This document shows, one piece after another, positions 32,974-58,490 of a DNA stretch of 64,000 nt. Each line of letters begins with the position of its first letter. Position 1 is the stretch's first letter. The notes beneath the pieces are model-generated. The model did no database searches. It was not told the origin of the DNA and saw nothing but the letters and a program-made list of their open reading frames with translations. The translations under genes and the position numbers were made by a program. Origin of the DNA: Blasia pusilla (lineage: Eukaryota); NCBI GenBank assembly GCA_050084515.1, contig CM114271.1, positions 8,990,001 through 9,054,000 of the forward strand, given 5' to 3'.

Positions 32974-34409
32974 TGTGATACCCACAATTTTTTAAATTTT
33001 CAGATTAATAAATTTTTTATTCAACATGAGTATGGATCTCTTCAAGGATGAAGACTATTTGAAGTAAAGTTTGTATATACAAGACTGTCTTGAATATTAT
33101 TTTTGCATATTGGATATTATAAGGAGTATTGGAGTGGATCACGAAGTTCCTCGGATAAGGCGGAGAGGTGGAACATCAAGGATTTGCCTTGGAGGAGGGG
33201 GAAATGAGGTAACGAAGTCTAAAGACCAAGAGAGAAGCTCGAAAAAGACAACGAAGCACAAATAAAGAACCTGTTACTGAAGTATTTTGCTCTTCAATGA
33301 AGCTACAAGATGAGATACAAAGTACTTAGAGAGAAGACGAAGACTAAGGCACTTCACACATCAACGAAGAGCTTCGTCTGAAGACGAAGAAGAAGAAGCA
33401 GAAGTACTTCGCTCTTTAACAAAGCACTTGAAGCAGTAGTGCTTCGCGGAAGAACGAAGAGGGAAGAACAAAGCACTTGGAACAAGCGCGAAGAATGCAG
33501 CGCTTTGTCTTTGGAAGAAGAGAGAGAACTTCGTCCTTGAAGGAAGAAGAAGAGGTCCCGACTTGGCATTGAAGAAAAGACTCGTCGTGATTTCAAGCGG
33601 CACACTATGAGAGTAGTTAGACTAAGAAGAGGCGTGACTTTTTGGTGCAGATAGGAAGGTAGGACAGTTAAGACCAGCGGATTCGTATGGATCACAGTAA
33701 GAGTCAAGAGAATTGTAGATTTAAGTAGTTAAGAGATCCCAATAGGTGCTTACTTAGCAAGAAGCACTTCAGATCATTGGTACTGATGTTGTTTGGAAGG
33801 ATATTTAAGAATCGTCAACGTAGGGATCAACATCATTCTCTTACAAAGTCCTTATGCTGTAGGAATGGTCTGAGGAAGGGAGTAGTATACTCTTGTGCTT
33901 GTATACACTTTGCAGCTTTGTTATTCTTGATGGAATAGTAAAGAACCTATTTCTTCATTCTAATGTGCGATGCATATGTTTGAGAATTCTTATTGGCTCT
34001 AAAGAGTGAGGAGTGAATTGGGAGAACAACTTTCACCCATAGAATAATCAACTTTGAGATGTGAGAAATCTCTTTGACTGAGAGTAGCATGCCAAGACGA
34101 ATTGAATTCTGAAAGTAGAAGAAGCCATCTTCTTGTTGAGATCTCTATGAGGTTCTTTGGTGTTGAGTGAAGATTTTCATGAGCGTGAATTCAATTCCAC
34201 TAGTGATAATCGAGGAAAAAAATCGTGGTACTAATGGAGAGAAGAATATAATGATAACTGATTGAATCCGAATTGTATACACTTAACTACAACTATTGCA
34301 AGATAAACACCAATTTAAACTCTCTTTTCAAATAATCGTGATCCTCTTGGGGATCAAACTCATTAAATTACCCTAAAAAGATCAATTCTTATAATTCTTG
34401 TACATTACA
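32974..34409 (+). repeat. LTR of Athila-like family (TGTGATACCC...TACATTACA)
   Basis: Homologous to 36339-37566, 48025-48484 and 63208-63486. PPT upstream, PBS downstream. Confidence 0.88.
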
Positions 34410-36338: not shown

Positions 36339-37566
36339 TGTGATACCCACAATTTTGTAATCTTGAAGAATATATCTTTTTATTCAACAAAGACTCTGGT
36401 ATATTATGATTATGATTATGATTATTTATTATTATGAAGAAGAATAAGTGAATCACGAAGCTCCTGGGACAAGGTAGAGAGATGGAAGATCAAGGATTTG
36501 CCTTAGAGGAGAGGAAAATGCAATAACAAAGTCCTAAGAAGCTTAACGAAGCTTAACGAAGCCTAACGAAGATGTATGAAGCTCTGTCTATGAAGTGCTT
36601 CGCTACATAACGAAGCATCACAAAGAAAAGAAGAACAAAGTACTTCGCTCTTTAACGAAGCGCGAAGCACGAAGTACGAAGCACATGAGATAAGAACGAA
36701 GCATGGAGTACTTCGTCCTCCTAAAGTCCAACGAAACGAAGCTAAGAAGGACTGTGATTTCAAGAGACACATGTTAAAACAGTTAGACTAGAAAAGGGCG
36801 CGACCCTTTGTATCAAATTGGTAGTTAGGACAGTTTTGTACCGCGGATTCACAGGGATCATAGGAAAAGCTAAGAGAACCATAGATCTAGGTAGTTAGAA
36901 ATAGTGAAGAGACACTAGCTTCATCAAGAACGTTTTGAATCTTTAAATCACTTCCACTCCAGCGAATATTTAAGAAGCAAGGCATAAGCCATAATCATCA
37001 TTCTCTTACAAAGTCCTTATGTTGTAGGAATGGTCCGAGCAAGAGAGTAGTACCCTCTCAAGCTTGTATACACTTTGAAGCTTTCTCGTTCTTGATGGAG
37101 TAGTAAAGCAATCATTCATTCATTCTGATGTGCGATGCTTATGTCTGAGTATTCTTTTTGGGTCTGCAGAATGAGGAGTGAATCAGGAGAACCTTTCTCA
37201 TCAATGAAATAATCAACATGAGTTGTAGGAAATCTTTTTGACAGAGAGTAACCTGCCGAGACGGATTGAGTTCCGAAAGTAGGAGAAGCCAGCTTTTATG
37301 TTGAGATCTCTGTGAGGTTTCTTGATGTCGAGAGGAAAATCTACCTGAACATGCTGTCAATTCTACTAGAGAGAATCGAGAAAAGATCCTTTGGTACTAA
37401 GAAAGATCAGAAGATATTGATAAGACATTGAATATAACTGACACACCTTTAAATACAACTATTACAACAAAATTGTAATTCCAAACTCTCTTTTCATCAA
37501 ACAATGATCCTCTTGGGGATCGAACTTATTAAAACGACTATAAACTAGAAACACTTGTACATTACA
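36339..37566 (+). mobile_element. Solo LTR, Athila-like family, 5-bp TSD GGGAC
   Basis: TSD at 36334-36338 and 37567-37571. TG...CA ends. Confidence 0.92.
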
Positions 37567-38345
37567 GGGACTCAGGGGACGAGGAGTCTACCAGACCAAC
37601 CAGACCTGAACCCATATCTCCCCCTTCCCGAAGATCCAGTCTGAGGCCTAGTAGCCGAATTTCCCCCATGGCCAATGCTAGGAAGACGCTGCTACGGTAT
37701 CCCACTTTTACGGGAGGACAAAGGGACGATGTTTATAATGTTGTGCTTGAGTTTTCCCATGTGGCTAAGGCCAATGGGGAGGGCTTGGAGGAAGATTTGT
37801 TATGGGTATTCTCGCGCCTTGTAAAGAAGCAAGCAAGCCAGTGGTACGAGGGCCTTAGAGGTGAAGTCACCAAAACATGGAAGAGGGTATTGGAGGCCTT
37901 CTTTCATGAGTTCTGGGACTTGGAGTTTAAGGATAGGCTTCTGACAAAGCTTCGTGATCTAAGACGTAAGAAGAAGGATTGTCATGACCATACGGATTAT
38001 GTCGTAGAGTATAGTGCTGGTAGAGGCCATTCCTTATGTAGGACCGTAGTGGCTTGGTAGAGATGCGGTTCCATACATAGGGTTGGGGGTTACTCACTTG
38101 GGGGTGACTTTCCCAGTAGGGCCTGCTCTTAGGTTGGAGGATATAAGGTGGCTTGCCCTCAAAGAACAGTCAGTTCTTTGAGTTGAGCCTGTTGCGTTGA
38201 GAGTTAGCCTTGGTAGTGAGTAGAGCTCTTGGCTATGGTGTTTCCCGCAAGCTTCGACCTAGATTCTCCCATTGTGGAGTGGGTTTGGCTCGATTGTATT
38301 TGATTGTAAACGTGTTTTATGACAGTAGGTCTTTCACGGATTTCA

Positions 38346-38356
38346 CTCAAAGAACT
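38346..38356 (+). promoter_or_regulatory. Self-priming (Tf1-type) primer-binding site
   Basis: CTCAAAGAACT is the exact reverse complement of AGTTCTTTGAG (38172-38182), which lies 30 bp after TATAA at 38142. Confidence 0.75.
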
Positions 38357-40029
38357 CGATGAGATCGATGGTAGCCGATTGTAGATCAGTAGGATCTGAT
38401 TAGGGCTGATTGTGTACTCAGCCGTGGATGTTCGTGGCTTGTGGCCTATGTTGGAGGTGTGAATCTGGTGCGCAGTTGGTTTGGAAAGAAGCGCCTTGAT
38501 GAGAGCTTTCCAACGCGCTGTAGATCGCCAGATTTCCTCAAGGGAGTTGGAAGTTATCAAGCATTGAAGATTCTGGTCGTGTTCTACGGTTTTCTGATGT
38601 GGAGAGCTTGGAGTGCGGAAGCTGTGTTGAAGTTCATCCAGATCGGGTGAGAGGTTCCTATTGCTACTCGTATTGTGATCTCCTGTGAATCTATCTGCTC
38701 GAGTGTGTGGAGCGTTGCGGATTTCTACATGCATGAAACTTGGTGGAAGCGCTGTCGGATTTGCGATTCTGGAGGTGTATGGACAGCAAGTTTGTTTGAT
38801 TTTAGCTCGAGTCTGAGCTCGGTTGTAGCTGATTTTTGTGGAGAGATAGCTATGGTGGTCAATTGAATTCTGATTGAAATAGATTTGATTTGGTCGTCAC
38901 AGATTTGTGAAGTAATTTCTGATCGAAATTTTGCGGACTAGCTCAAGGTCCGGCTATGGTGACAAATGGATCGGAGGGGTGGTTGGTTGGTGACTCGTTC
39001 ATTTTTGAGACGCCTATCCCGTTGGGGCCGCCCTGGTTGGACCTCTCTCCATAGCGAAGCATGGCGAAGCGTGGCGAACGGGGCGATAGGGGCATGTCTC
39101 GGCGTTTTGAGGCTTCGAGGCAACTCGTGGTAGCTCGGGGCGAGTGGGCGTGAGAGGCGGAGTAAGGAGCAAGGAGCAAGCAAGCAAGCTTGCTTGCTTG
39201 GGCGTGAGGCAATTTTGCAGGATTTGGGATTTGAGTTTTGCATAAGCTGGTCATCCATCTTTGGGCTATTCTGCCTGGAGGACGCTTAACTACCGAGTTC
39301 TTAACTATGCCAGTGTACAGACTGTTGTAGCTCATTTGGTGCTGTTCGGAGATGTGTTAGGCGCTTTATGCATCTCAGGTTTTTGGTTGATGTACCTCTA
39401 GCGCATAGTACGGTGTAGCCTCTCCATGCAGTGATATTTTCAGGTCTTTCTTGGCGTTCGACTAGCACGTCATCGACCCTTGGCGGAGTAGCTATTTGCG
39501 TTAGAATTGTGTGGTGGGTTTTGTGGATTGAGAGCACCACGTTTGGTGGATTGTGTTACCTTGATTTCCATTTGCGATTGGAGGGTTGTCGTTGGATTTC
39601 TGTGTTTGGATCCCCTCCATTGTGCTTTTGCTTGCGCGCCCATTGTTGGGGTTGACGTTGATTTCGAGTAGTGTTACTACTTGTGTGTGCTACCGGGTAG
39701 TGAGGTGGAGGGATGACGAGTAGATTGTGGGAGACTTCTTGTGGTGATGACAAGTTAGGTTGCCTACACCCATAGCTAGTAGATCTAGAATAGTATAGCG
39801 ACATCGGCGTCACTTGGTAATTTGGTGGTGGTGCGGCATCGGCGTTGGTCATCACGAGTGTTGGGTGGTCTGGTTGGGGACCGTGGTGCGGGTGGTGGTG
39901 GTTTCACACGGAGTGGATTTAGGTATCGGCTACCTTTTCCACTTCCGACGGTTGATGAAGAGGAGGACGAGGGTGTTCCAAACACCGAGTCTTCTACGTT
40001 GTTATCGAGTGTTGCGGCTCCATTGATTT

Positions 40030-41400
40030 GGGACATGGACGGTGGATATGGGGCCATGAAGGGCCCACGACGATACTCGGGTGCAAAGTGGGTACCATTG
40101 AGTTGGAGGACTTCATGCAGGAGTTTGATACGTGGTGTGATATGCAGATGTTATGAACGCCACGTTGTTTACACCCTTCTTGGCTTGGAAGGGGTTGTTT
40201 CAAAGACTTGGAAGGACCACCCATGGATGATTACCATGAGTTTAGGAAGGACCATGTTTCTTTGAGATTGAGGCATGGAGACAATATTGGTCTCCATGCT
40301 ATGTGTCTATCACCCATGGTGGTATTGGTAGTAGTGCTCCTACTATGCCGGCCCCCCGACCCTGAGTGGTGCAGTGAGCCGGAGTGGGGGTACCGGTGGA
40401 GGTACTAGTGGGGGTACTAGTGGAGGTACTAGTGCCCCACCATCGTTTAGCTTGGTTGCAGAGTTCTTCAAGAGGTTGAAGAAGAACTATCAAGGAGTGA
40501 AGACGGAGAAGTTGAGGAATCTTCAGGACTTTGAGCGAAAAGACGGTGAGAGTCTTCGTGAGGCATACACGCGTATCGGACGCTTGATTTCGATTACCAG
40601 GGTGTGACCGAGGATCGGAGTCGATTTTGGTATGGGATCTTGGACAGAGATTTGCGCCGTAGGGTGCGTGATGCTACTCTTATGAGTGATGATTCACCCA
40701 CATTGACCCATGTGTTTGCTCTATCTGAGAAGATTGAGCTTAACATGGTGAAGGAGAGAGTGGTGACATCCGCATTCAGAGAGGGATACAACTACTACTT
40801 CTTGTGTTCAGCCGCCCACCTCACGATCTCTCGTAGTAGTGGTGGTGGTAGTAGTAGTGGGAGTCATGGGGGATACACGCGACCTCAGTCAAGTCCTAGA
40901 GGGACATTTGTGCAGAGACCATTGCCTTCATTTGCTGCCCAAAGAAGGGCGATCATGTTGGACATGTGGAGGTGATCATGTTAGGAAGTTTTGTCCCCAA
41001 GAGGATGGGAGACGGACTTTGGAGGATGGGCCTCGATCGGCCCCAACTCGGTGTGATCATTGCGGGAGACTAGGTCATCCTCGAGAGCGTTGCTTTGATC
41101 TTCATCCGAGTTGAGATCGGGCCGTGGCCGTGGTGGAGTAGCTCAGAGGCCGAGGTGGTAGAGGTGGTAGAGGTGGACCGGTGGTTGGAGAGCCTACGGT
41201 GGCTACCCCTACCACTATGGTCGCCGAGATTGAGCGATTGGAGCGAGTTGGCTACTATGGTGGTATCCAAAGATAGATCGGGTTCGGGAGCGAGGGCTTC
41301 CACCTCTTATGGAGGGGATGATCTCTCTTATATGGCGAGTGCAAAGACAAAGGTTGAGGCATCATTTGCGATTATGAGAGGAGCCACTCGGCGTCGAGCC
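40030..41400 (+). pseudogene. gag: gag with two zinc knuckles (frameshifted)
   Basis: FERKDGESLREAYTR. CWTCGGDHVRKFC and CDHCGRLGHPRERC. Limits are approximate. Confidence 0.8.
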
Positions 41401-42632
41401 ACGTGGTGCTCTTGTGGAGTTGGACCCACAGAGAGGGGTGAGGTGAAGGCGTGCTAGGCTTCCCGATCATTCTTGTTGTGCGAGGTGCTTAGGACTCCAT
41501 CCATGGTTCCCACGCGGCCTATTGAGCCGCAGTGGGGAATGAGGCATCTACATCGCGTGTAGTAGACACGGATGCAAACATCCAATGCAAGATTGCGGAT
41601 GGCAACTTCGGTGTTGGGATCCCCATTGTTTTCGCCACGGAGCGATGGCTTTAGGAGTTGACTTAGCTCTGTATTTCAGATTAGCGAGCCACGCGTTGTG
41701 TGAACGTGGGGTGTTTCGCTACACGTGTTGAGGTGGATGAGGGTGTTGCGGTGGAGTGACCCTCTATGTCGGGAGTAGCATTGAGTACCGGTGCTACTTG
41801 GCAAAGAAAGCGGCGAAGATGGATGCATTACCGCCCGGCCAGCCATTGATCGTGAGAGGCTTACACTGGTGTATGTATGTTGGACACCGGAGTGGGATCT
41901 TCCGATTGGTGAGTCCTACAGACAGTGTATAGACAGATAGAGTCTTGTTAGACTATGGTGCCCAACCTTTGATGTTGGGAAAGGCGACATGTATTGGTTT
42001 GGGTATTCGGAGGTCGAGCTTGAGCCTTGCCCATTCCAGATTCAAACATCACTTGGAGGAGCCAATGATAGGTCTCAATTCATGACACGGGAGAAGTTTT
42101 TGACAGTTGAGACCAGATCATGCGATTGATAGCTCCCGGTTGGGAGTATCGCATGTAGTCACATCAGCCGAAGTCGTATGATGTACTAGTTGGAGGAGCG
42201 ATATTGTACCCGATGGGTTTTCAGATGGATTACGGATCGAGACAACGTCTTATAGACGAGGTTGGCAGTCCGGGGATGGACGTATGAGCCAAGTTCTGTG
42301 AGATTTATTTCTAGGGCTCGACCGAGGAGGGTCTTCCCCAACAAAGTGTTAGCATCTGTGGGTGGTTTTAGTGGAGTAGTCACTTGGCCAGGAGACTTTT
42401 TGGAGGGTAATGTTTCGCTATGGATTCTCTGCGCATGAGGAGGAAGAGGAGGTCCCTATTTTTGCAGCAAAGTGGCATCCTCATCGTTGGATGTGCCACT
42501 TTGGAGTTCAGCGGTGCACTACGGCAGAGGCGATCGCCTAGTGCAGAGGAGGCTTGGTGTGAGGTGTTATACCTCACGAGGAAGAGGAGGCCCACGGCGG
42601 ACTCCTACTTCTGGCCCGATTAGGTTATCCCT

Positions 42633-43600
42633 TTGGATACTACACCCATTGTATGGCAGTATCCGCCGGAGGGCATTTGTGTGTTAGATCTCTTTGGTGG
42701 GATTAGCACTGGTTTGGCTGCAGTGTTGCAGGCCGGTATTCCTATGCGGAGATACGTGTATGTGGAGCGAGATGAGACGGACCAGAGAGTCTCATCCCGA
42801 CATATTGGTCAGTTGATGCGGAGATATCCTGAGTTGTTTCCGCCATCAGCTATTCAGTGGGTACCGGCGTGTTTTTTACCATCACACATTGCATTGTTGG
42901 GGCGCCACGACCTTGAGAGAATTGGTCTGTGGATTTGGTGATTGCTGGATGGCCATGTCAGGGTCATACACGTGCTGGTCGTGGTGAGGGATTACATGAC
43001 CCTAGGTCTCGATTGTTTTGGGAGATGTTACGGGTGTTACGACATCTTCAGGTTCATCAGGCACGTGCTCTAGCTTACATTCTGGAGAATGTTCCATTGT
43101 TGGGTTACACTCGGACCCGGATGATGGCGAGTGTTCATGAGGTGCGCTCTTGGATTGGACCAGCGGTGTTGTTGGATGCGATGCGAGTTGGCTCGCGTGC
43201 ACATCGCCCACGCTTGTGGTGGACAAACTTGTTGCCTAGGAGGTTCTCGTCGAGCATATGATGCAAAGGCGGGATCCTCGCTTACAAAGTGGATAGTATC
43301 TTGGATACTGGGCGACTTTCCCAAGTGGTGAGGGTTATTGATCGGTCACCCATGGCAGTGGTGAACGGTGTGGGCCAACCTAGGATGGCACTACCCACAT
43401 TTGTGAGTTTTCCGCGTCACATGCCTACGAGGAAGGTGGTCGGGGCTTGTATGGGATTCTCATGTGCGGCGATTGGTGGAGCCTAACGATGATGAGAGAG
43501 AGGGTGCGATGGGATTTACTATGGGCGTGGCGGTTGCTTCTATTTCGAGGCTTCACGACGTCATGTGTTGGGTCAGGCCATGGACCTGAATTGTTTGACT
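42633..43600 (+). pseudogene. C5 cytosine DNA methyltransferase domain inside pol, between protease and RT
   Basis: VLDLFGGIS (I), YVERD (II), DLVIAGWPCQG (IV), ILENV (VI), AHRPRLWWTN (VIII), GQAMDLNCL (X). Frameshifts. Protease-like VLLDYGAQP at about 41940. Confidence 0.92.
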
Positions 43601-43899
43601 TGGATTTTGAGTCTTGGTATGGGCAGCGTCGACTTCGGACTATGTCGTGGGTCTTCCACCCCTTGTAATGAGCTCGATGGCTACCAGGGGACAAAGAGAG
43701 GCATCGGTTGGGGGCAAGGAGAGTAGTATTTTGCATCCTTGGAGTAAATGGGATGTAATGGTTGGGCATGTGGAGTTGGTTGCTCATCTTTGGTGGAGGA
43801 GTTATTTGCTCGGATGATGGTGTAGCTAAGGGTGTATCATCTTGTGAGGGGTTGCGTGAGCGACCAATGGCATCGTCCTCTCCCTCTAGTATGCCAGTG

Positions 43900-45340
43900 G
43901 AGGAGACTTGGAAGCCATTACTTGGGCCCAAGCTTACGGGAGGTGAGAAACGACGCTTGACCCAGTTTCTACGTGCTTATAGGAGTTGTTTTGCCTTTAG
44001 CATGAAGGAGTTGGGTTCTCTGGTTGGACCCGGTATACGGATTGATTTGGCTAGTGATACGCCAATCTTCCGTCGTCCCTACCGATATAGTGATATGGAG
44101 AGGGACCTGATTGAGTAGGGCGTTGGACCTTTTGGAGGTGGATTAGTGGAGTTGTCGCATGGAGAGTATGCATCGCCCTTTGTCATGCTGCTAAAAGGAT
44201 ATGCATGGCAACCACACGGATAGGCGGATGTGTGGAGATTACCGTCCTATCAATCGGCAAACCAAGGCCGATAGGTATGCCATGCCTACACTGAGAGATC
44301 TTTGATGTGGTGGGACAGCAAAGATTTTTAGTACTTTGGATCTTCGGCAGGATACCATCAATTGCCGATTTGGGAGAGTGACAAGGCCAAGACAAACATT
44401 TTGGGGTGTCAACTCTCATGGCAAGGATTGTTTGTACGGTGGAAATTCTTACCCTTTGGGTTGAAGAATGCACTGCCGAGTTTCAAAGAGTGATGGGCAG
44501 GATCCTAGCAGGGGTTGGATTTTGTTCGGTGTTACATTGATGATATCTTGGTGTTCAGTAACACGGTGGAGGAGCATCAGATACATTTGCAGATGGTGTT
44601 TGAGCGGTTGAAAGCTCATGGTCTACGTTTGCATCCAAGAAAGTGTAAGTTCTTCCATGAGGATGTTGAGTACTTGGGTCATGTGATCTATCCAGGTGGT
44701 TTGGGAGTTCAGCAAGCAAAGGTGGAGGCTATTGCACTTATTCCACGTCCGATAGATGTGAGTAGAGTTCAAGCATTCATGGGATTGGCGAACTACTATC
44801 GGAGGTATGTGAAGGGATTTAGTGCTCTGGCAAATCCTTTGAACCAATTGCTGAAATCAGATCAAGAGTGGCACTGGGGAGATGATCAGGAGGGAGCTTT
44901 TGTGGAGCTTAAGGCCCATTGGTGGCGGCGCCTATCTTGAGGAGACCTATCGAGGGCGCCCATTTCGATTACACCGATTGGAGTAGGTTGGGACTTGGAG
45001 CGGTGTTGACACAACATGATGATGAGCACATGGAGTTTGTGGTGGCCTATGCAAGTCGTTCGAATAATGCAATGAGTCACTGTAGTTCATATGAGGGAGA
45101 GTGCTTGGCAAGTAGTGTGGTGTGGCACACTTTAGGTGTTACTTGTTTGGCACAGATTTACCCTTGTTCGATCACCGGCCGCTCAAGTGGTTGATGGAGT
45201 CGGACAAGCTTACAGGGGAAGCTTGCACGGTGGGCTCTTATCTTACAGAGTATGACTTCCGGGTGGTACATAGACCTGGAGTTGCCAACCTTGATCTTGA
45301 TGGGTTGAGTAGGAACCCATGTACTAGCCAAGAGGATACA
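43900..45340 (+). pseudogene. pol: Reverse transcriptase and RNase H
   Basis: RMCGDYR, LPFGLKNA, YIDDILVFS, YLGH, TDWS..GLGAVL, DH.PLKWL. Confidence 0.92.
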
Positions 45341-45536
45341 AGCGGGGCTAGATGGCATGGCGAGGTTGATGAGGAGATGCCGCCAGGTTGGCATGCATCC
45401 GCCTTTTATGTTGGTTAGGTGGACTCTAGTATGGAGGACCACATGATATCTTACTCTAGTCGAGGGTAGATGGCCACCTTGAGATCCTAAGGTTGGAGAT
45501 GGTGGTACGGATCAGCGTGATATTCATGATGATGCG

Positions 45537-46963
45537 TTGGTGTTGGAGTTCCTACGGACCAGTAGGGTGCCAGGCATAGTGAGTGCCAAGGAGCGAGACC
45601 GTGTTCTTCAACGTGCTAAGAGGTATCGATTGGAGGGAACACATATTCTCCGCATGTGGGAGGATGGTAGAGTACGAGTAGTGCCACATTTGGCTCAGAG
45701 AGAGCGCATTGTGCGACATGCCCATGAGGAGTTGGGACATTTTGGGGTAAAGCGTACGTATAGCTTACTCCTTGGCCAGTATTGGTGGCGTGGCATGCAT
45801 ACTCAGTGCAGTGATTGGTGTCACGTTGTATGGTTTGTGACCGGGTGAGGGCATCATTTAATGCCCCTACACCACAATTACACCCCTTGCCTATTATGGG
45901 GTTGGGTTACCGTTGGAGTGTGGACTTTGCGGGACCGTTACCATTGACTGTACGATATCATCGATATGTGTTGGTGATGGTGGAGCACTTCTCCAAGTGG
46001 ATTGAGTTGGTGGCATTATCGGACAAGGCAAGTGAGGGAACGGCGTATGCGTTTCTGGATAGAGTGCTTAGTCATTTTGGTGCACCACCGGTGAAGTCTT
46101 GACCGACCGCAGGCAGTGAGTTTTAGGGTGAGTTTCAGGTCTTGTGTGACAAGGCGTTGATTGATCATCGGACCACGTCTCGAGATCATCCAAAGGCGGA
46201 TGGTTTGGCTGAGCGTGTGGTTCAGACGGTGAAGAGGGCATTGCGCAAGTATGGCCTACAGAAGGGGCATCTTGGAGACTGGGATATCCAGTTGCCATGG
46301 TTAGCCATGGGATATAGGTTCAGTCGCCAAGCATACTTGGCTTCCTTCTCACCTTATTTTCTGTTATACGGCCGAGATCTAGACTTGCCAGCAGCAATTC
46401 GTCGGGAGTCTAGTGAGGTGGTGGACCTTGATGACCCAGAGATGTGGATGAGGGTGTGTTCTCAACGAGCGGAGCTCTTTCGGAGAGTTATGCCAACAGC
46501 CTTTGAGAATCTTGCCATTGCTCAACACAGGGATACGTTGCGGTATGCAACCATTCGGGGTGGAGGTTATCGACCATCGATTCGTAGGTTCCATGTGGGG
46601 GACTATGTCTATTTGCAGCAGATTGCCCCGACAACGTTGGATGTGACGGCAGGCCGCACTATTTTACGAGTGCGTGAGGTGTTAGCTTCTGGAGTTCTCA
46701 TGTTGGAGGGTCGTGATGGAGTTGTTTGGAAGGACCATGTGCGTAATTGTGCGCCATGTCATCTTCCAAATGTGGATGGTACTGTTGACCCAAGCTTAGC
46801 CATGATACGTGCTAGCTTGAGGTGCATGTTGTGTGGGTCTGCTGGTAACGCAGCCCGTATGTTGGTGTGTGATCGGTGTTCTAGGGGTTGGCACATGATG
46901 TGTTTGACTCCACGTTTGGATGTTGTTCCTACTGGAAGGTGGGTTTGTCCTCGATGTACTTAG
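45537..46963 (+). pseudogene. pol: DDE integrase with C-terminal PHD finger
   Basis: HEELGH...CMVC, WSVDFAGPLP, DGLAER. PHD CMLC...CDRC...HMMC...WVCPRC (C4HC3) at about 46823-46960. Confidence 0.92.
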
Positions 46964-48024
46964 GAGAGGTAGATGACTTGATCTTTGCATGATATGGATT
47001 ACAGATGTGCGACTAACGATGGAGCAACCTAGCACCCGGCCTTCTGATTCGGGCACCCAAGAAGGTGTATAGCATGTAGTAGATGTATAGGGCTACCGGG
47101 AGTTAGAGGACCTAACCGATTAGATTAGGGGGCGAGTTGTGGTACACTTGCGTTTGTGGATACTCTCGTCTATGTTATGTATGTATGTGAGTATGGTATG
47201 TCAGTGATGTATGTTGTATGACGATGGGGATTCGCACGACAGCTGTCATGACCATACGGATTATGTCGTAGAGTATAGTGCTGGTAGAGGCCATTCCTTA
47301 TGTAGGACCGTAGTGGCTTGGTAGAGATGCGGTTCCATACATAGGGTTGGGGTTACTCACTTGGGGTGACTTTCCCAGAGGGCCCGCTCTTAGGTTGGAG
47401 GATATAAGGTGGCTTGCCCTCAAAGAGCGATCATTCTTTGAGTTGAGCACTATGCGTTGGGAGTTAGCCTTGGTAGTGAGTAGAGCTCTTGGCTATGGTG
47501 TTTCCCGCAAGCTTCGACCTAGATTCTCCCATCGTGGAGTGGATTTGGCTCGATTGTATGTGATTGTAAACGTGTTTTATGATAGTAGGTCTTTCACGGA
47601 TTTCAGTTGTGGTACACTTGCGTTTGTGGATACTCTCGTCTATGTTATGTATGTATGTGAGTATGGTATGTCAGCGATGTATGTTGTATGACGATGGGGA
47701 TTCGCACGACAGGATACTATTAGGGAATACATCCAAAGATTTTGAAGCCTACTTAATAAACTAGAACACATCACCACTTCTCAGTTGGTAGATTGGTTTG
47801 TGTCTGGACTATCCAAGGAAATGGACCAATATTGCCGCCGGGGCCAACGACAATCGCTGGAAGCGGTCATTGCATCCGCGGAAGCATACGAAGCCTCCAA
47901 GAAATCTCACAAGACGCGAGGACAACGTCTCCAACGGCGAGGCGCTTTGCATACTATATCTTTGTCTGAAGACGAAGCATCCTCTACGGACACCGAAGCT
48001 TCTACTAACGATACCTCTCAAAAA

Positions 48025-48484
48025 TTTCTTCATTCTGATGTGCAATGCATATGTCAGAGAATTCTTATTGGGTCTGCAGAGTGAGGAGTGGATTGGGAGA
48101 GCAACTTTCACCAATAGAATAATCAACTTTGAGATGTGAGAAATCTATTTGACAGAGAGTAGCCTGCCAAGATGAATTGAATTCCGAAAGTAGGAGAAGC
48201 CTTCTTCTTGTTGAGATCTCTGTGAGGTTCTTTGGTGTTGAGTGAAGATCTTCCTGAGCGTGAATTCAATTCCACTAGAGAGAATGGAGGAAAGAAATCT
48301 TAGTACTTATGGAGAGAAGAATATAATGATAAATGATTGAATCCGAATTGTATACACTTAACTACATCTGTTGCAAGATAAACACCAATTTAAACTCTCT
48401 TTTCAGATAATCGTGATCCTCTTGGGGATTGAACTCATTAAATTACCCTAAAAGAATCAATTCTTATAATTCTTGTACATTACA
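48025..48484 (+). repeat. 3' part of an Athila-like LTR
   Basis: Near-identical to 33950-34409. Ends TACATTACA. Confidence 0.85.
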
Positions 48485-50731
48485 TGTGGCATAAGAGAAT
48501 TGGACATATGAATCTTCAAAGATTACAGAGTCTTTCATCATCTAATCTACTGATAGGACTTCCTAAATTAGCGAGTCCTGCTATATTAGAGGTATGTCGT
48601 ACCTGCCAATTTGGAAAACAAGCTAGATTTCCTTTCCCAAAGCAAGGTAGAAGAATATCTTAGATATTGGAGTTGATTCACAGTGATGTGTGTGGACAAC
48701 ATCACAACATAGCCTAAGTGATTGTGTGTACTTTGTTTGATTTATTGATGACTTTTCTAGGTATGTATGGGTATACTTTCTGAAAGCCAAGTCAAAGGCA
48801 TTCTCAATGTTTCAAACATTCAAAATTCTAGTAGAGAAGCAGACTCGATAACACATTCTGAAATTGCGTTATGATGGAGAAGGAGAGAATCTTTCAACAA
48901 AGTTTGATGACTACTTACGTTAGAATGGCATCCAACGTCAAGTGAATTATCGTTACACTCAACAACAAAATGGAGTGGCTGAGAGGAAGATTCGACATAA
49001 TGCTGAGGCGATACGAGCTATGATGAATGAGAAGAACATGCTTAAGGTGTCGCGCCCCTACTCTTCTTGAACGTCAATCTTTGGTGTTGCGGAAGTGTAC
49101 GTTCAGTAGGTCACGATCTCATGGCCGATCTACACCCAAACACGCACTCTTGTTAGTCGGGTCTGGGCCAACCAGCGTTCCAACCCATCGAGTTCTCAAC
49201 TCGGCGTCTCATCAAGCTCAACCTTCCTTAGTTCCTAGTTTCCAAAACACGGCAAGTCCTTCAAGACTTGGAACAGACTTCCTGGTTAGTCCAGGGATCT
49301 GAAACGGCACCCGCGCGCCTAGCGATCGCAACTATTCAACAGTCCTCGTGTGAGTTCGAAACCGAGACCCAAGTAATTGAGTCGCGGGGTGAAATCCAAG
49401 AGGGATGTCTAAAATTGCCTCAATAGACTTGGTGCAGGTTTTCCAACCCAACTCCCAAACTCGCGTTCCGTTCCATGCCCTTGAGCCGCCCCGCGGCGCC
49501 CAAAGTGGGGTTCGGGTTCCAAGCACTCTCGAAGACCTTCCCCCTTACTAGTACTTCAGGGGTTCTCCAATAACCCCCCCCTTGGAAAAGGAGGGTCGGG
49601 CCCTTCATTGTGGCCCTCAACCCGACTCTATTTACAGTCGTTTCTGGGTTGTTTCTCAGCCGCTGCTAAAGCGTTTGCAAAGCTCTTTAGTGCGTTTGAA
49701 CCGGCTTTCCATAAGATTTCTAACGCACCCTTATTTAATCCAACCGCATATTGGCACTAAAAGTTATGGCCATAAATATAGTCGGAAACTCTCAAACGCT
49801 AGTGGCGTTCCAAATCCGGATTCTTCCTTTTGGCAACCCACTTTCTAGACTCGACTTCTTTCAAGTCTCAATCCGTGTTTGGTCCAGGTTTCTCGGTCGC
49901 GACCACAACATCTGAAACGTGACGCCTCACTCACGTCTCGTCTCTTGTCTTCTCTTTGAGACTACTCCAACGCGCAAATCATCTTAGCGTGAGCCCGCTA
50001 ATATTCCGATGTTCCGCTTGGCACTCGTTTGGTCATGAGGGTCGCGACACTCACCCCTCTTTAGAGGTTGATGCCCTCATCAATGCAAACCTTTGTTATG
50101 TCAAGTCTCTTGTAGCCTACCCCTTGACATTGAATCTGGTGGCTAACCCGCAATTCCTCTTAGTCTATAGTTGCCGCTTTGCCCCACTTAGAATTATTAG
50201 CCTCTCCTCTTTGATAAGCCTGGACAGGTTCCAAAGAACTAACCTATCAAATAAGCTAACTAAGTGTGCAACCTTAGACTCTTCTGGCTCACTCTTGTAA
50301 ACATCACACCTGTTTACCTGGTCTACAAATCGTACTACTATTGGGTCGCTCTCATATTCGAATTAGGCGCGTCACTAAGTTTACTTATGTGGCCACAAGT
50401 AAGATCACCCCAAGCCCCAAGACAGACTTCATCTGCCCCGCCGACGCTAGGGCGAGCCCGAGTGTAATCCAACACAAAGTCCTGTTCTAGGTGCTTATCC
50501 ACATACGAGCTCTCACCTCAAATACTCCTTGTCTGTCCTCTTGACGTACATCCTAAGCCTATGATGAACGACTCATAGCCATGCACTACCACATACAAAT
50601 TGCAATCAACTCTGGCATCGAATCTCCAAATCCATACACTCCTTTATTGCAACACTGGCATATTCTAGTTACAACGGCCTTCGGCCCAAGATTCCACTGG
50701 TTACAAGTTATGTCTCTAGCTTCTCCTCGTA

Positions 50732-53700
50732 CTAACGTATGTGCTTCGCTTGTTTTCCCTTGAAGTCTCGCAACAACTCTTGCGCGTGTTCCAAATCCGC
50801 CTCCGCAATCCAAGTCGCCTCCTTCACATGGTAGCCCTTCCATTTTACCAAGTATTCATACTTGTTGGCCCGACGCCTTGAACGTAAGATGGTCTCCACC
50901 TCAAACTCCGGCTCTTCAATTATGATAACCGGGTGCGGTCTCACCAATTGTCTCCGCGCGAAACGTCCATTATCTTGAAGATATTTCTTCAACAATGACA
51001 CATGAAAGGTCGGGTGAATCTTGAACTCGTCCGGCAACCTCAACGTGTACACATCCTCAAACGGGTTTGCCACAATCACATACGGTCCAGCATACTTGGC
51101 AGGCAGCTTCGCAGACAACTCTTTCGCAAGAGTGAGGTTCTTCACACTCAACCACACTTGCTCTCCAACTTGGAATCGTACTTGGCGCCAACTCTTGTTA
51201 GCATGCTTAACGTACCTCATTTGAGCCTTTGCAAGACTTTGCCTCACTCGCTCTTCCCGTTCTCGCATCTCCACCAACAAACCTTGTGTCGTCGCTTGTC
51301 GTGTTCGTGCCAATGTAGTACCCTTCGGAAGGGCTAGGTCAAGAGCCCCTTCTGGCTCTCGTCCATTTTCCAGGAGAAACTGAGATTCTCCAGTTGCAGA
51401 ATGCTTGGTCGAGTTGTAGCAGTACTCCGCCATGCTCAGCCACTTGACCCTATCTCGTTGATCAGCACTGACATAATTCCCTAAGTACTGATTCACCATA
51501 GAGTTGACCTTTTCAGTCTGTCCATCCGTCTGTGGGTGGAAAGCCGTACTGAAACTCACCTTGGTCTTAAACCTTCTGAACAAGTGCTTCCAAAAAGCAC
51601 TCGTAAACTTCGGATCCCGATCTGAAATAATGCTCCTCGGCAAACCGTGAGCACGCCACCAGCTATCAAGAAACAATTGCGACGTCGTATAAGCCGTTGC
51701 GGAATCCACCGTCGGCACGAATCTTGCCAACTTGCTAAACCGATCAACAATCACAAGTATAACGTTGTATCCCTCAGATTCCAAAAGACTCGTGATGAAA
51801 TCCATACTCACACTTTGCAAGGGTCCTTCTGGGATCAGCAAGGGATGCAACAAGCCCTGTTTCTTATCATAAGAGACTCCATTCGCTTGGCAGATCACAC
51901 AGGTCTTCACATATTGAGCAACATCCTCTTTCATGTTGGGCCAAAAGAACCGTTTCGACAGAACAGTTAGCGTAGATTTCTCTCCTTTATATCCTGCCAA
52001 GGGTCCGTCGTGACATTCCGCTAACACTTTGGTTTGCATCCTGCCTTGCCCTACATAGATCCTACTGTGTTTGAACCTTAGTAAAGCGTGCCTCAAACTT
52101 ATGTTGGCCACCTTCTCACCCTGCTTCAACTTCCTCAGGTATTCCCCTGCATGAGCATCCTTCATATATCCTTCACGAATCCTTCTTTCTAGGTCTGTTT
52201 CTTTAGGGAACATTGCTCTCAAGACTTGTGTCGTGGATGGCATGTGTTCCTCCTTGCGACTCAACGCAGCTGGAATCACATTATCTTTACCTGGCTTGTG
52301 AATCAACTCAACATCCATCAACGCCAAGGTATCATGCCATCGCAGTTGTTTCAGTGTCACTCGATCTTGGGTCTCAAAATACTTGAGTGATATATTATCG
52401 GTGAATATTCGAGTCCTGTGGAGCCCTAGATAATGCCGCCACTTCCTCAAGCAATGTACCACCGCGAACAACTCTTTCTCGTGAGTAGGCCATCTCCTTT
52501 CAGTATCGCTAAGCTTCTTGCTCTCGTATGCCACCGGTCTCCCTTCTTGCACCAACATTCCTGCAACCACGAAATCACTAGCATCGGTATGCACTTCGAA
52601 CGGTTTGTCAAACTCCGGCAGCTTCAACACTGGTTCCTGCGATAGAATTTGCTTCACTCGGCTGAATGCCTCATTAACTTCCTGGGTCCAAGTTGTGTTG
52701 GCAAACTTTTCTGTCCAATCCGTGAGAGGTCTCACAATTCCCGAAAAGTTTTTCACATAAGTGCGATAGAACTGCACCGCACCTATGAACCTCCTCATCC
52801 CCTTTACAATGGATGGGGTTCTCACTCGGAAATCGCTTTTACCTTCTCCTTGTCTGGACTGATGCCATCTGCACTGACCATGTGACCCAAGAATTTGATC
52901 TTGCTCAAACCAAATTCACTCTTCTCTACATTTGCATACAGCTGATTCGCCCTTAGCTCTCACATTTCGAACGTGCTCCTCTAGTGACTTCGAATAGATA
53001 AGTATGTCGTCAATATAGATGATAACATACTCATCCACTTCCTTGTGAAAAATGAAGTTCATCAATGTGGTGAACGTCGGAGGCGCGTTACATAGACCAA
53101 AAGGCATCACTACAAACTCAAAGGACCCGTATCTCGTCCTGCACGCAGTCTTCTCCACATCTGCTTCGGCAATCCGAATCTGGTAATATCCTGACTTCAA
53201 GTCAATCCTACTGAAATATCTCGCGCCTGCCGCCTATCGAAGAGATAATCTATCCTTGGTAGAAGATAATTGTTCTGAACCGTCACTTTATTCAGCCCAC
53301 GGTAATCAACACACAACCTGATCTTTCCATCCTTCTTCTTTACAAAAAGAACAGGTGCTCCATAAAGTGACTTGCTAGTCCTAATGTAACCTTTTTCCAA
53401 GAGCTCACTTAACTGCTTTTTCAACTCAAGAAGTTCCTCCTGATTCAACCTATATGGTGCTTTTGAAGGCGGTTGGGAACCGGGTACGATCTTTATCTTA
53501 TGATCAACGGCTCCATGTGGCGGAAATACAGTCGGAAGCTCATTTGTCAAGACATCCTCAAACTCCTTGACCACTTCCTGGAGTGGTTTTGGGATTCCCC
53601 TTGAATCAGCGTCCTGATCTCTGCGTATTCTACTTGTAGCCTCCTCCACTTGTCTCATCAAGCAGAGAAATCCATCCTCCAACTCGGTCATGCTCCTCCT

Positions 53701-54159
53701 TGTAATCGAGTTCACTAACTCCTTTTTCGCCGGAACCTCACGCACCAACCGCACCTGTAACCGTTTTCCCTTTAGCAAGACTCTCAACCTCAAGGGTCTA
53801 TGTCTTAACTCCACCTCATACGCATCTAGGAATGTATTCCCCAAGACTCCGTCAATGCCATCCATTTCGCACACAGTGAAATTCTCCTTCAACTCGAATA
53901 CCCCGCATCCTACTATCAAACCCAAGACCAAATCAGAAGTCCGACGAGACTTGCCTCCTGCAAATCCTACCCGAATGGGCTCATCCGCCTTAGAGGTAGA
54001 CAACCCCAGTTCCTTCACGATTCTTGGGCTTAGGAAGGAGTGCGAAGCACCTGTATCCACGAGCAACAACACATCGCGATCAGCAATCTTGGATCTTAGG
54101 TACACCAAATTGTGCGTCCTCTTGGTGACCTGAAGGGACGTCTCGAGATTTCCCGCCAA
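50732..54159 (-). pseudogene. pol: pol: PR-RT-RH-INT-chromodomain (frameshifted)
   Basis: LVDTGAS, YIDDILIYS, TDASD, SMDFI, SDRD, QTE, FEVETIL...YLVKWKGY...TW. Confidence 0.95.
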
Positions 54160-54165
54160 TAGATG

Positions 54166-55249
54166 CTAAGCAGCCAACGCAATCATACTCCCATTACTAA
54201 CCTTCGGTTTCAAACACACTTTCACCAGGTGCCCCGGTTTGCCACAGTTGTAGCATATGACCTTGCCGTTCCCTGACTTCGAGTGCTGTCCTCCTTTCGG
54301 CTTCGCATGGAGTTCCACTCGTTTTTTCTTTCGGGCGACGACTCTCTGGATCGTCTTTGGCCCCCCCTCGCACTCTTTTGAATGCCTCCTTATTTTTTGA
54401 CTTCTTCGAAAAACCTTTTGGCTCAAAGGGTTTCTGGGTTTGGACCTCATCATCCCCAATCCGCTCCGCCAGCTTCAGAAGATCCGCGCAAGTATCTGGA
54501 AACGTTGGCATTCGGTAAAGGGCCTTTTCATCGCTCGGCTTGAGTCCACTTATGAAGATAGCCTTCTTCGCGTGCTCATCCATCTTTGGAATCGAAGTCA
54601 GTTTCGCACTAAACTCCCTCACATACGCGCTTAAGGAACCACTCTGCCGCATCCGCACGCATTCCACCGTGTCGCGCAACCCTTGGTACTCCGGAGTGAA
54701 TCGATCCCCAATCAACACCTTGAACTCCTCCCAACTCAGAGGTGACTCGCCACCCAGATATTCCTCTTGTTGAGTTGTCCACCATTGTAGCGCATGATCC
54801 TTCAGGAAAGTGACGGCTACCGTCACCTTGTCCTGCTCAGCAACCCTCTGCGCCCCGAAGTACAGTTCTAGTTCCGTAAGGAAATCCTTCACTTTCATGG
54901 CGCCCCACCCCGATGAATGGCGTGGCGAGTTTGTCTTCTTGAGCTTTTTGCCCGCACCCGGAGTTCGGGTGGCCTCTAACTCTGCAATCCGCTTGCTTTG
55001 CTGGGACATCTGCTCCACCAACAGCTTCAACAAGTCCAACGTCTGGCTCGACTCGGTCCGTTCCCCTGAGTTTGGGCCCGATGGCTCCGCGGAAGGATTC
55101 GCCTCTGGAACGTCCTCACGACTGGTGTTCAGCTCTTTGAGGGTCTCCGTCTCCTCCGTAGCTTCAAGGTCCGACATTGGTTCCTCTCTTGGTTCACGTC
55201 GCTTGATTCGACGCTTCTTGGGTTGTTCTCCCTCGATCGCCATTTTCAA
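54166..55249 (-). pseudogene. gag: gag with CCHC knuckle (frameshifted)
   Basis: ALQWW...WEEFK...QSGSLSAYVREF. CYNCGKPGHLVKVC lies in a second frame. Confidence 0.9.
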
Positions 55250-55459
55250 GCCAACTCACTCAGATCTCCTCCTCATTTCTTGCGTCCCTCCTCGAGCGTC
55301 TAAGTCTAGCCGCTACCTTGAGTTTTCCCAAGCGTCCAGTTGATCCCACGACCCCAAGTTCTCGCTCACCAAGGATAAGCTTTGATACCACTTGTCGCGC
55401 CCCTACTCTCCTTGAACGTCAATCTTTGGTGTTGCGGAAGCGTGCGTTCAGTAGGTCAC

Positions 55460-56461
55460 TGTCGCGCCCCTACTCTCCTTGAACGTCAATCTTTAGTGTT
55501 GCGAAAGCGTGCGTTCAGTAGGTCACAAACTCATCGCCGATCTGCACCCAAACACGCACTCTCGTTAGTCGGGTTTGGCCAACCGGCGTTCCAATCCACC
55601 GAGTCCTCAACTCGGCGTCTCATCAAGCTCAAACTTCCTTAGTTCCTAGCTTCCAACACATGGCAAGTCCTTCAAGACTTGGAACAGACTTTCTGATTAG
55701 TCCAAGGATCTGAAACGGCACTTGCGCGCCTATCGATCCCAACTGTTCAACGGACCTCGGGTGAGTTCCGAACCGAGACCCAAGTAATTGAGTCACGGGG
55801 TGGAATCCAAGAGGGATGTCTAAAATCGCCTCACTGGACTTGGTGCAGGTTTTCCAACCCAACCCCCAAACTCGCGTTCCGTTCCATGCCCTTGAGCCGC
55901 CCCGCGGCGCCCAAAGTGAGGTTTGGGTTCCAAGCACTCTCGGAGACCTTCCCCCTTACTAGTACTTCTGGGGTTCTCCAATAACCCCTCCCCTTTGGGA
56001 AAAGAGGGTCGGGCCCTTCATTGTGGCCCTCAACCCGACTTCACTTATAGTCGTTTTTGGGTCGTATCTCGGCCGTTGCTTATGCGTTTGCAGCGATCTT
56101 TCGTGCATTTGAACCAACTTTCCATAGGCTTTCCAACGCACTCTTATTTGCTCCAAACGCATCTTGGAGCTAAAAGTTATGGCCATAAATACAGTCGAAA
56201 ACTCTCAAACGCTAGTGGCGTTCCACATCCGAATCTTTCCTTTGGCAACCCACTTCCTAGACTCGACTTCTTTCAAGTCTCATTTCGCGTTTGGTCGAGG
56301 TTTCTCAGTCGCGACCATAACACCTGAAACGCGACTCCTCGCTCGCATCTCGTCTCTCGTCTCCTCTTTGAGACAACTCCAACGTGCAAACCATCTTAGT
56401 GTGAGCCCGCTAATATTCCGATGTTCCGCTTGGCACTTGTTTGGTCATGAGGGTCGGGACA
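55460..56461 (-). mobile_element. Solo LTR inserted within the 5' LTR of its own family, TSD GTCAC
   Basis: TSD at 55455-55459 and 56462-56466. Confidence 0.92.
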
Positions 56462-57565
56462 GTCACGATCTCATGGCCGATCTGCACCCAAACACGCACT
56501 CTTGTTAGTCGGGTCTGGGCCAACCAGCGTTCCAACCCATCGAGTTCTCAACTCGGCGTCTCATCAAGCTCAACCTTCCTTAGTTCCTAGTTTCCAAAAC
56601 ACGGCAAGTCCTTCAAGACTTGGAACAGACTTCCTGGTTAGTCCAGGGATCTGAAACGGCACCCGCGCGCCTAGCGATCGCAACTATTCAACGGTCCTCG
56701 TGTGAGTTCGAAACCGAGACCCAAGTAATTGAGTCGCGGGGTGAAATCCAAGAGGGATGTCTAAAATTGCCTCAATAGACTTGGTGCAGGTTTTCCAACC
56801 CAACTCCCAAACTCGCGTTCCGTTCCATGCCCTTGAGCCGCCCCGCGGTGCCCAAAGTGGGGTTCGGGTTCCAAGCACTCTCGAAGACCTTCCCCCTTAC
56901 TAGTACTTCAGGGGTTCTCCAATAACCCCCCCCCTTGGAAAAGGAGGGTCGGGCCCTTCATTGTGGCCCTCAACCCGACTCTATTTACAGTCGTTTCTGG
57001 GTTGTTTCTCAGCCGCTGCTCAAGCGTTTGCAAAGCTCTTTAGTGCGTTTGAACCGGCTTTCCATAAGATTTCTAACGCACCCTTATTTAATCCAACCGC
57101 ATATTGGCGCTAAAAGTTATGGCCATAAATATAGTCGGAAACTCTCAAACGCTAGTGGCGTTCCAAATCCGGATTCTTCCTTTTGGCAACCCACTTTCTA
57201 GACTCGACTTCTTTCAAGTCTCAATCCGCGTTTGGTCAGGTTTCTCGGTCGCGACCACAACATCTGAAATGTGATGCCTCGCTCACGTCTCGTCTCTTGT
57301 CTCCTATTTGAGACTACTCCAATGCGCAAACCATCTTAGCGTGAGCCCGCTAATGTTCTGACGTTCCGCTTGGCACTCGTTTGGTCATGAGGGTCCCGAC
57401 ATAAAGTGTATTGTGCAGAGGTTGTAGCATGTGCAGTCTTCTTAATCAACCAAACTCCAACAGGAGCACGAATTCATGATAAGATTCCATTTGAAGTCTT
57501 CAAAAGAAGTATATTTGATTTTTCCTTCCTAAAAGTATTTGGTTTTATTTATTAAGCTCATGTTT

Positions 57566-58490
57566 AGTCGCGACCCTCATGACCAAACGAGTGCCAAAGC
57601 GGAACATCGGAACATTAGCGGGCTCACGCTAAGATGGTTGCGACTAAGAATCCTGGACCAAACGCGGAACAAGACTTGAAAGGAGTTGAGTCTAGGAAGT
57701 GGGTTGCCAAAAGAAGAACTCGGATTTGGAACGCCACTAGCGTTTGAGAGTTTCCGACTGTATTTATGGCCATAACTTTCAGCGCTGAGATGCGTTTGGA
57801 TTAAACAAGAGTGCGTTGGAAGGCTTATGGAAAGCCAGTTCAAACGCACTAAAGATCTTTGCAAACGCATAAGCATTGACTGAGAAACAACCCGGGAACG
57901 ACTATAAGTAGAGTCAGGTTAAGGGCCACAATGACGGGCACGACCCTTCTTTTCCAAATGGGGGTGTTATTGGAGAACCCCAGAAGTACTTGTAAGGGGG
58001 AAGGTCTCCGAGAGTGCTTGGAACTCGAACCCCACTTTGGGCGCCACGGGGCGGCTCAAGGGCATGGAACAGATCGAGAGTTTGGGATTGGGTTGGAAAA
58101 CCTGAACCAAGTCTACGGAGACAATTTTAGACATCCCTCTTGGATTTCATCCCGTGACTCAATTACTTGGGTCTCGGTTTGGAACTTGCAGGAGGTCCGT
58201 TGAACAGTTGGGATCGCTAGGCGCGCAAGTGTCGTTTTAGGTTCCTAGACTAATCAGGAAGTCTGTTCCAAGTCTTGAAGGACTTGCCATGTTTTGGAAA
58301 CTAGGATTAAGGAAGGTTGAGCTTGATCAGACGCCGAGTTGAGAACTCGGTGGGTTGGAACGCTGGTTGGCCCAGACCCGACTAACGAGAGTGCGTGTTT
58401 GGGTGCAGATCGGCGATGAGATCGTGTCCTACTGAACGTACGCTTCCGCAACACTAAAGATTGACGTTCAAGGAGAGTAGGGGCACGACA
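57566..58490 (+). mobile_element. Solo LTR of the chromovirus family, opposite orientation
   Basis: Reverse complement of 49048-50049 with an internal deletion. Imperfect TSD TGTTT/TGTTC. Confidence 0.88.

Follow-up and report, generated by a model that had tools for sequence, protein, structure and literature searches.

We analyzed a 64,000-nt stretch of Blasia pusilla DNA (assembly GCA_050084515.1, contig CM114271.1; hereafter the window), which carries a decayed copy of a Ty3/gypsy-type long terminal repeat (LTR) retrotransposon. The element belongs to a green-lineage clade, many members of which bear a DNA methylase, and its integrase open reading frame (ORF) ends in a PHD finger. Its repeats are split and permuted, with the order GGAT, A1, primer-binding site (PBS), gag, DNA methylase, reverse transcriptase, RNase H, DDE integrase, PHD finger, polypurine tract (PPT), B1-GC-A2-GT-B2, GGAT. 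This A…B-A-B layout recurs in at least three families of relatives, whose integrase identity ranges from 86 to 50%. We propose that the ends of the complementary DNA (cDNA) are joined and that integrase then re-opens the molecule at the PBS-proximal palindrome, yielding a permuted insertion, a reading that we consider probable.

The repeats were located by a repeat search together with self-BLAST, and every coordinate proposed in an initial annotation of the element was recovered to the base (Table 1). As that annotation had it, a clean 4-bp target-site duplication bounds the element, and the integrated ends TGTCATG and CACGACA meet again inside it, where B1 adjoins A2, as the palindrome GACA-GC-TGTC. 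The ends themselves form an inverted repeat that matches at 8 of 9 positions (TGTCATGAC / GTCACGACA). Of the 366 columns in the A1–A2 alignment, 16 differ, 6 of these being gaps; B1 and B2 differ at 1 of 104 positions. All four repeats, A1 with A2 and B1 with B2, are expected to be identical at insertion, and gene conversion or chance may account for the imbalance. In one mapping of source reads (four runs, 85% likeness), the family was very abundant, and in the best run set the summed depth fell about 700-fold just right of position 47751.

The priming sites define the LTR that reverse transcription (RT) would produce. The PBS lies directly after A and the PPT directly before B; thus, U5 ends with A and U3 begins at B, which gives B-GC-A as the RT-defined LTR, in agreement with the initial annotation. 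The further claim that this LTR is bounded by TG…CA holds for the window copy but not as a conserved feature, since B begins with ATACATG in the second family of relatives described below. The element departs from a canonical LTR retrotransposon in that its first repeat, A, is only the inner portion of the RT-defined LTR and an additional B closes its 3′ end, and its target-site duplication flanks LTR-internal sites, not the RT-defined LTR ends. The alternative in which the LTR proper is A-B and its 5′ copy has been truncated was rejected: no B-like sequence follows A1, and the positions of the PBS and PPT contradict it.

Judged by its sequence, the PBS is a Tf1-like self-primer site, the transcript start being a predicted one. 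The PBS, ACTCAAAGAACT, is complementary to AGTTCTTTGAGT, the predicted RNA 5′ end of the element itself, found some 30 nt past the TATA box GGATATAAGG; among the families, such complementarity covers 12–14 nt. The sequence after A1 is not a tRNA primer site. Primer and PBS covary among the relatives: the pair is CTCAAAGAAC/GTTCTTTGAG in most family-1 copies, TTCGAAGAAC/GTTCTTCGAA in L021, and AATTCTAGAAAAAC/GTTTTTCTAGAATT in family 2, where it lies about 33 nt after a TATA box. When the leader was folded, PBS and self-primer were paired in both the minimum free energy and the centroid structure, with an overall z of only −1.1. The family-2 leader fold pairs them too, with a z of −4.2.

Relatives were collected from metagenome contigs, which were searched with an alignment of the window integrase-PHD ORF and 14 homologues. 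The search matched 596 stretches, 433 of which were confirmed as relatives, and the best 80, corresponding to 69 groups after near-identical contigs had been merged, were analyzed. Family 1 comprises 24 loci with nucleotide similarity to the PPT, B and A of the window, and family 2 comprises 41 loci at about 50% identity in the integrase piece. The best named protein matches of the integrase-PHD ORF come from Marchantia polymorpha (86%), Calypogeia, Klebsormidium, Haematococcus and Pleodorina, and include Klebsormidium nitens proteins at 54–55% identity.

Across families 1 and 2, 21 distinct 3′ ends read B-A-B (6 and 15, respectively, window included), versus 26 in which PPT-B is followed directly by flank. 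The six family-1 B-A-B copies are the window, L007, L010, L015, L021 (=L025), whose B2 is cut at 56 nt, and L023, whose locus ends within A2; L014 is a deleted form that retains the A/B joint. PPT-B followed by flank was found at 10 distinct family-1 loci (L002=L016, L004, L005, L006, L009, L011, L012, L020, L024 and L079) and 16 distinct family-2 loci, while 3 others in family 2 read B-A and are then cut or altered. A third family, L031 (=L032; 62% identity), is also B-A-B. At the other end of the element the picture is uniform: all 14 distinct 5′ ends read flank, TGTCATG…A, PBS, seven in family 1 (window, L002=L003, L004, L005, L017, L021=L025, L023) and seven in family 2 (L034, L035, L047, L049, L053, L073, L076). 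At none of these 14 ends does a B stand beside the 5′ A, either before it or between A and the PBS. The initial annotation had pointed to ordinary paired LTRs in other copies as the sign of a single accident; no canonical B-GC-A LTR at both ends was found among the relatives in the best 80 loci, and B-A-B recurs in at least three families.

Two sets of contigs deserve separate mention. L015 and L016 (=L002) have 2.7 kb in common at 98.5% identity or more, and their divergence begins inside B; past that point, L015 reads B-A-B and flank, and L016 reads B and a different flank, which makes them either sister copies or an assembly-graph walk. In L018 (positions 8545–9040, 66% identity), PPT-B-GT-A is followed by the locus's own self-priming PBS and interior, with no second B. 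This arrangement was set aside as a possible assembly-graph walk, from A2 into the continuation of A1, or a tandem pair sharing one LTR.

The integrated ends of the relatives agree with those of the window copy. The last bases at every 3′ end are …CACGACA, in some copies altered by transitions, and perfect 4-bp duplications flank 7 of 11 complete copies (GGAT in the window, ACTA in L002, TACA in L005, ATGT in L035, CCAA in L049, AAAG in L073 and TTTT in L076, the last within a T-run and therefore weak as a duplication). Two more copies, L004 and L047, match at 3 of 4 bases. It is at TGTCATG/CACGACA, where the initial annotation had proposed to look for them in other copies, that these duplications sit. 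The window also contains a canonical chromovirus with TGTCGCG…CGCGACA at its true LTR ends, beside the PPT. Consequently, TGTC…GACA is the motif that such an integrase normally meets at the ends of the cDNA.

When the two internal junctions were compared among copies, B/A was constant and A/B variable. The B/A spacer is 2 nt long in all 6 family-1 copies (GC in the window, L010 and L023; AT in L007; AC in L015 and L021) and in 17 family-2 rows (13 distinct), where it is GC, AC, AT or AA, variants described as differing from GC by transitions. Further families, represented by L018 (GT), L027 (CG) and L060 (CCCGACA-GC-TGTCGGG), likewise have a GACA-NN-TGTC palindrome downstream of the PPT. We conclude that the B/A junction is an inherited palindrome; being part of U3, it is present in the RNA.

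The A/B joints typically hold 1–5 nucleotides derived from the PBS or the PPT. In family 2, U5 ends in …TTC, the PBS reads AATTCTAG… and B starts with ATACAT; in 10 of the 13 distinct joints, the inserted bases are A, AA, AAT, AATT or AATTC, each of which is a prefix of the PBS. The remaining three are AAG, AT and AATA, and L045 (=L047) has the start of B deleted. The family-1 joint is A followed by GTTGTGG in the window and L021, and the same with two transitions in L010. In L015 it is GA, the final two bases of the PPT, and in L007 a 21-nt insert that ends in a PPT-like CGAG. Variable retention of primer-derived bases is the look of joined cDNA ends, as in the junctions of retroviral 2-LTR circles, and the A/B joint is just such a U5–U3 junction. 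As a transcript from A1 to A2 would not include this joint, it must be made anew in every cycle. Thus, of the initial annotation's central proposal, the attachment sites inside the RT-defined LTR and the permuted order stand, while a circle as the substrate keeps the rank of a suggestion, now strengthened by copy-specific joints with PBS- or PPT-derived nucleotides.

The sequences show how the repeats are laid out, where the element ends, its duplications and its priming sites, and that the B/A junction is inherited but the A/B junction variable; we infer a joined or circular intermediate, its cleavage by integrase and a choice of palindrome. Our model suggests that transcription would begin in A1, about 30 nt past the TATA box, with termination expected in A2. 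The 5′ end of the RNA would self-prime the minus strand at the PBS after A, the PPT before B would prime the plus strand, and reverse transcription would yield a linear cDNA with a B-GC-A LTR at each end. Integrase would ignore these RT-defined ends; its own end sequences sit back to back in U3 as GACA-GC-TGTC. The U5 end would be joined to the start of U3, in a 2-LTR circle or by an equivalent end-to-end jump, creating the variable A/B joint. Integrase would then cut after CA on both strands of the PBS-proximal palindrome, leaving processed ends with complementary 2-nt GC overhangs, and such cuts would account for the loss of GC. Insertion with a 4-bp stagger would produce A–PBS–genes–PPT–B-GC-A-x-B (x being the joint) and the 4-bp duplication, and the integrated A…B-GC-A-x-B could again be transcribed into complete genomic RNA. 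Cleavage of palindromic LTR–LTR junctions by integrase has been reported for foamy virus (PMC1180852) and HIV-1 (PMC1905944). For the whole clade, from green algae to liverworts, it seems to us an even call whether integration obligatorily uses end-joined, 2-LTR-circle-like cDNA re-opened at the inherited U3 palindrome.

Several points weigh against this model. The joined or circular cDNA is itself deduced, and a poly(A) site in A2 is assumed. The alternative permutation, A-x-B-GC-A–PBS…PPT-B, occurs at 0 of the 14 distinct 5′ ends. A circle would contain two identical palindromes but only one permutation is seen; therefore, a symmetric circle needs either an added bias or rapid loss of the other product. 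Such loss could occur, since two long copies of A one B apart would readily delete to A…B. About half of the 3′ ends, the 26 distinct cases of PPT-B followed by flank, lack A2-B2; these may derive from the alternative permutation or a deletion between B1 and B2, from assembly collapse, or from integration of linear cDNA or a 1-LTR circle. L034 and L053, 2 of the 11 complete copies, have no target-site duplication. The window copy is dead, with many stops and frameshifts. Finally, metagenome contigs of repeats may be graph chimeras, and L015/L016 are ambiguous in this respect.

The single permutation could also arise if reverse transcription made the terminal B without a closed circle. Here, once the right LTR was finished and a few primer bases had been copied, the 3′ end of the plus strand would jump to the left end of the cDNA and copy B and beyond, and integrase would cut each side back to the first TGTCATG or CACGACA site within it. 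One jumping 3′ end would explain why the other order is absent from all 14 5′ ends. It would also fit joints that vary on the U5/PBS side (0–5 PBS-derived bases) and are nearly always exact on the B side, where 13 of 14 family-2 joints have ATACAT at the start of B and the family-1 joints have GTTGTGG. However, the PPT-derived bases at the joints of L015, L034 and L007 equally fit the end-joining of finished ends, and deep internal cleavage by integrase would still be required. We regard this route as possible, though unlikely.

The copies ending in PPT-B raise another alternative, namely that the normal product is A…B without terminal repeats, made when integrase cuts linear cDNA or a 1-LTR circle at its internal sites, with A…B-A-B as a minority by-product. 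The 26 distinct ends of this kind fit the idea, as do L002, L005 and L049, which have both ends and perfect duplications, and L076, with its TTTT in a T-run. In contrast, an A…B RNA without a 3′ R cannot finish the first strand transfer, so a pure A…B family could not persist. Moreover, B-A-B is conserved in three families whose integrases differ by up to about 50%, and A…B forms are also the predicted outcome of B1–B2 deletions or of collapsed assemblies. We therefore consider this explanation improbable.

A tyrosine recombinase, or a pathway like that of DIRS and Ngaro elements, would be suggested by the layout alone, since A1…B1-A2-B2 is the arrangement described for DIRS-order elements (PMC5890265, in a figure legend). 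No such recombinase was detected by Pfam in the six frames of the element, where the minus strand gave no domain match at all, nor in the Pfam lists of 120 listed relatives or in P0018, P0073 and P0106. The TG…CA ends and 4-bp duplications mark a DDE integrase, and the rve domain is present. The initial annotation's pairing of split direct repeats with a DDE integrase is borne out, and we judge a tyrosine recombinase origin very improbable. A single accident or artefact, whether an ordinary element was rearranged, a solo LTR nested or the window misassembled, would suit a copy that is old and broken and whose junction was read in assembled sequence, but is hardly credible given the same arrangement in 21 distinct copies (the window and copies from other assemblies) and in at least three families, the clean target duplication, and the quite different look of a true nested solo LTR elsewhere in the window.

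The layout is already in print: according to the Fig. 4c legend of PMC5890265, KnitGypsy-Dnmt3 of K. nitens has DIRS-like repeats (A-coding-B-A-B) and Gypsy domains. The window element has the same combination of a Gypsy-type pol, a C5 DNA methylase and A-coding-B-A-B repeats. The hosts differ, K. nitens in one case and a liverwort-like host in the other (best named match M. polymorpha, 86%), and the K. nitens integrase matches at 54–55% are not equated with KnitGypsy-Dnmt3 itself. For that element, the section and legends consulted in PMC5890265 describe neither target duplications nor end sequences and are silent on a palindrome, on priming sites and on how it integrates. Hence, the window element is a liverwort-like addition to a kind noted once in print, and the observation is real and clade-wide. 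The LTR-internal attachment sites, the inherited palindrome, the joint remade in each cycle, the self-priming and the 4-bp duplications appear to be new.

Other known systems share parts of this organization. DIRS, Ngaro and PAT elements likewise have split direct repeats, A1…B1-A2-B2, and an internal B1/A2 junction that carries both element ends joined. They use a tyrosine recombinase and are not known to make a target duplication, whereas the window element relies on a DDE integrase and has TG…CA ends flanked by 4-bp duplications. In retroviral 2-LTR circles, U5 and U3 are joined with variable primer-derived bases and the ends recognized by integrase form a palindrome, as here. In retroviruses, however, that palindrome is the circle junction; in the window element it is inherited inside U3, and a circle-type junction lies inside the integrated element. 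Most retroviral 2-LTR circles are regarded as dead ends. Tf1/sushi elements and plant Tcn1 resemble the window element in a PBS complementary to their own RNA 5′ end and in Ty3/gypsy domain order, but have ordinary LTRs and a chromodomain (PMC6317226), in place of which we find permuted repeats and, at the integrase C-terminus, a PHD finger. In Chlamydomonas, a PHD finger is likewise part of the Gypsy polyprotein of Gypsy-7a_cRei/REM1; the legend to Fig. 6A mentions "LTR subparts" and a left LTR without the last 8 bp of the right one, and the same source calls TOC1 a non-autonomous DIRS element (PMC9940879). The repeats of TOC1 may run A…B-A-B as well. Titles retrieved for split direct repeats and integrase LTR retrotransposons concern tyrosine-recombinase elements or are general reviews. 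No literature was found on PHD-finger integrase retrotransposons of Marchantia, passages on Chlamyvir held nothing relevant, and no description of an integration mechanism for DDE split-repeat elements was found in the literature searched.

The element offers a natural, sequence-defined case in which the ends used by integrase differ from those made by reverse transcription, unlike the accepted integration of such elements. With it, the old question of whether joined or circular cDNA can be integrated becomes open to direct testing in a lineage of plants. It also offers an explanation for a layout noted only in passing (legend in PMC5890265) and ties it to the DIRS/Ngaro pattern via a different enzyme. 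If our model is true, a form regarded in retroviruses as a dead end would be what integrase normally inserts in this clade, and the split-direct-repeat layout of tyrosine-recombinase elements would have arisen convergently with a DDE enzyme. There are consequences for annotation as well. Tools that look for LTR pairs would take A1 and A2 as the LTRs and place the 3′ end one B too early; they would find neither a PPT beside the "LTR" nor a target duplication, so that elements would be missed or misdated. The variable A/B joint is a scar of each insertion and could serve to distinguish sister insertions.

Table 1 Features of the permuted Ty3/gypsy-type element, in window coordinates
Feature	Position	Strand	Basis or remark
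Left target-site duplication, GGAT	37976..37979	+	recurs at 47712-47715; host ORF reaches up to 37979
A1, 5′ repeat; begins TGTCATG (integrase end); 3′ part of U3, TATA box, R, U5	37980..38345	+	
TATA box, GGATATAAGG	38139..38148	+	same position conserved among relatives
Predicted RNA 5′ end and self-primer, AGTTCTTTGAGT	38172..38183	+	12 nt complementary to 38345-38356
Self-priming PBS, ACTCAAAGAACT	38345..38356	+	directly 3′ of U5
gag CCHC zinc knuckle	41052..41093	+	pattern C-X2-C-X4-H-X4-C, frame 38346
C5 cytosine DNA methylase fragment (PF00145)	42917..43261	+	Pfam match
Reverse transcriptase and RNase H, reading frame disrupted by frameshifts and stop codons	44347..45251	+	RVT_1 62.5, RT_RNaseH 28.9, RT_RNaseH_2 30.8 bits
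DDE integrase, H2C2 zinc domain and rve core	45693..46192	+	Integrase_H2C2 42.6-47.1 bits; rve 32.6 bits
PHD finger, C-terminal in integrase ORF	46823..46957	+	Pfam match
PPT, AGGGGGCGA	47127..47135	+	G-run PPT immediately before B in all relatives
B1, 5′ part of U3; last bases CACGACA	47138..47241	+	repeat comparison with B2
Palindrome GACA-GC-TGTC, two integrase end sequences abutting; 2-nt spacer 47242-47243	47238..47247	+	
A2, second A copy	47244..47605	+	repeat comparison with A1
Joint CA-GT-TG, U5 end to U3 start, 2-LTR-circle-type	47604..47609	+	length and sequence vary among relatives
B2, terminal B copy; last bases CACGACA (integrase end)	47608..47711	+	
Right target-site duplication, GGAT	47712..47715	+	

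The interior of the window copy contains many stops and frameshifts, and its domains were called after reading through the stops as X. Its pol order, RVT_1, RT_RNaseH, Integrase_H2C2 and rve, is that of Ty3/gypsy elements and is the same in intact relatives. The rve score equals the Pfam cut-off exactly, and relatives have a clear rve domain. The DNA methylase lies upstream of the reverse transcriptase in the window element and in P0018, and in P0073 and P0106 it is placed between the RNase H and integrase domains, which suggests two separate captures, or a relocation, within the clade. In the gag region, positions 40383–40430 hold three and a half 12-nt units (AGTGGGGGTACT-like) that encode a Gly-rich stretch. 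A second relative, truncated by the window edge, occupies positions 1–1200 on the minus strand, with a DNA methylase at 306–911 (51–55% protein identity) followed by the start of the reverse transcriptase.

The element sits in a gag-like ORF (weak Retrotrans_gag match, 17.3 bits) of another decayed repeat, which covers 37533–37979 and resumes at 47716. Units of this host repeat recur three times around the insertion, at 33949–34367, 37109–37533 and 48019–48442. The chromovirus mentioned above lies on the minus strand at 49048–57401 and encodes gag, protease, reverse transcriptase, RNase H, integrase, SH3_Tf2-1 and a chromodomain; its outer duplication matches at 4 of 5 bases (TAAGG/TAAAG). A solo LTR at 55460–56461, 89% identical and with a 5-bp duplication, GTCAC, is nested in its 5′ LTR, and an additional inverted copy of the LTR lies at 57635–58490. 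The idea that this neighbour, at 49–57 kb, shows the same phenomenon was rejected, as its three LTR copies reflect an ordinary solo LTR nested in the 5′ LTR. Between 38001 and 48000, the permuted element is strongly asymmetric over its whole length, with a GC skew between +0.22 and +0.29 and, on the coding strand, more T than A; the skew is reversed at 50–56 kb, fitting the minus-strand chromovirus.

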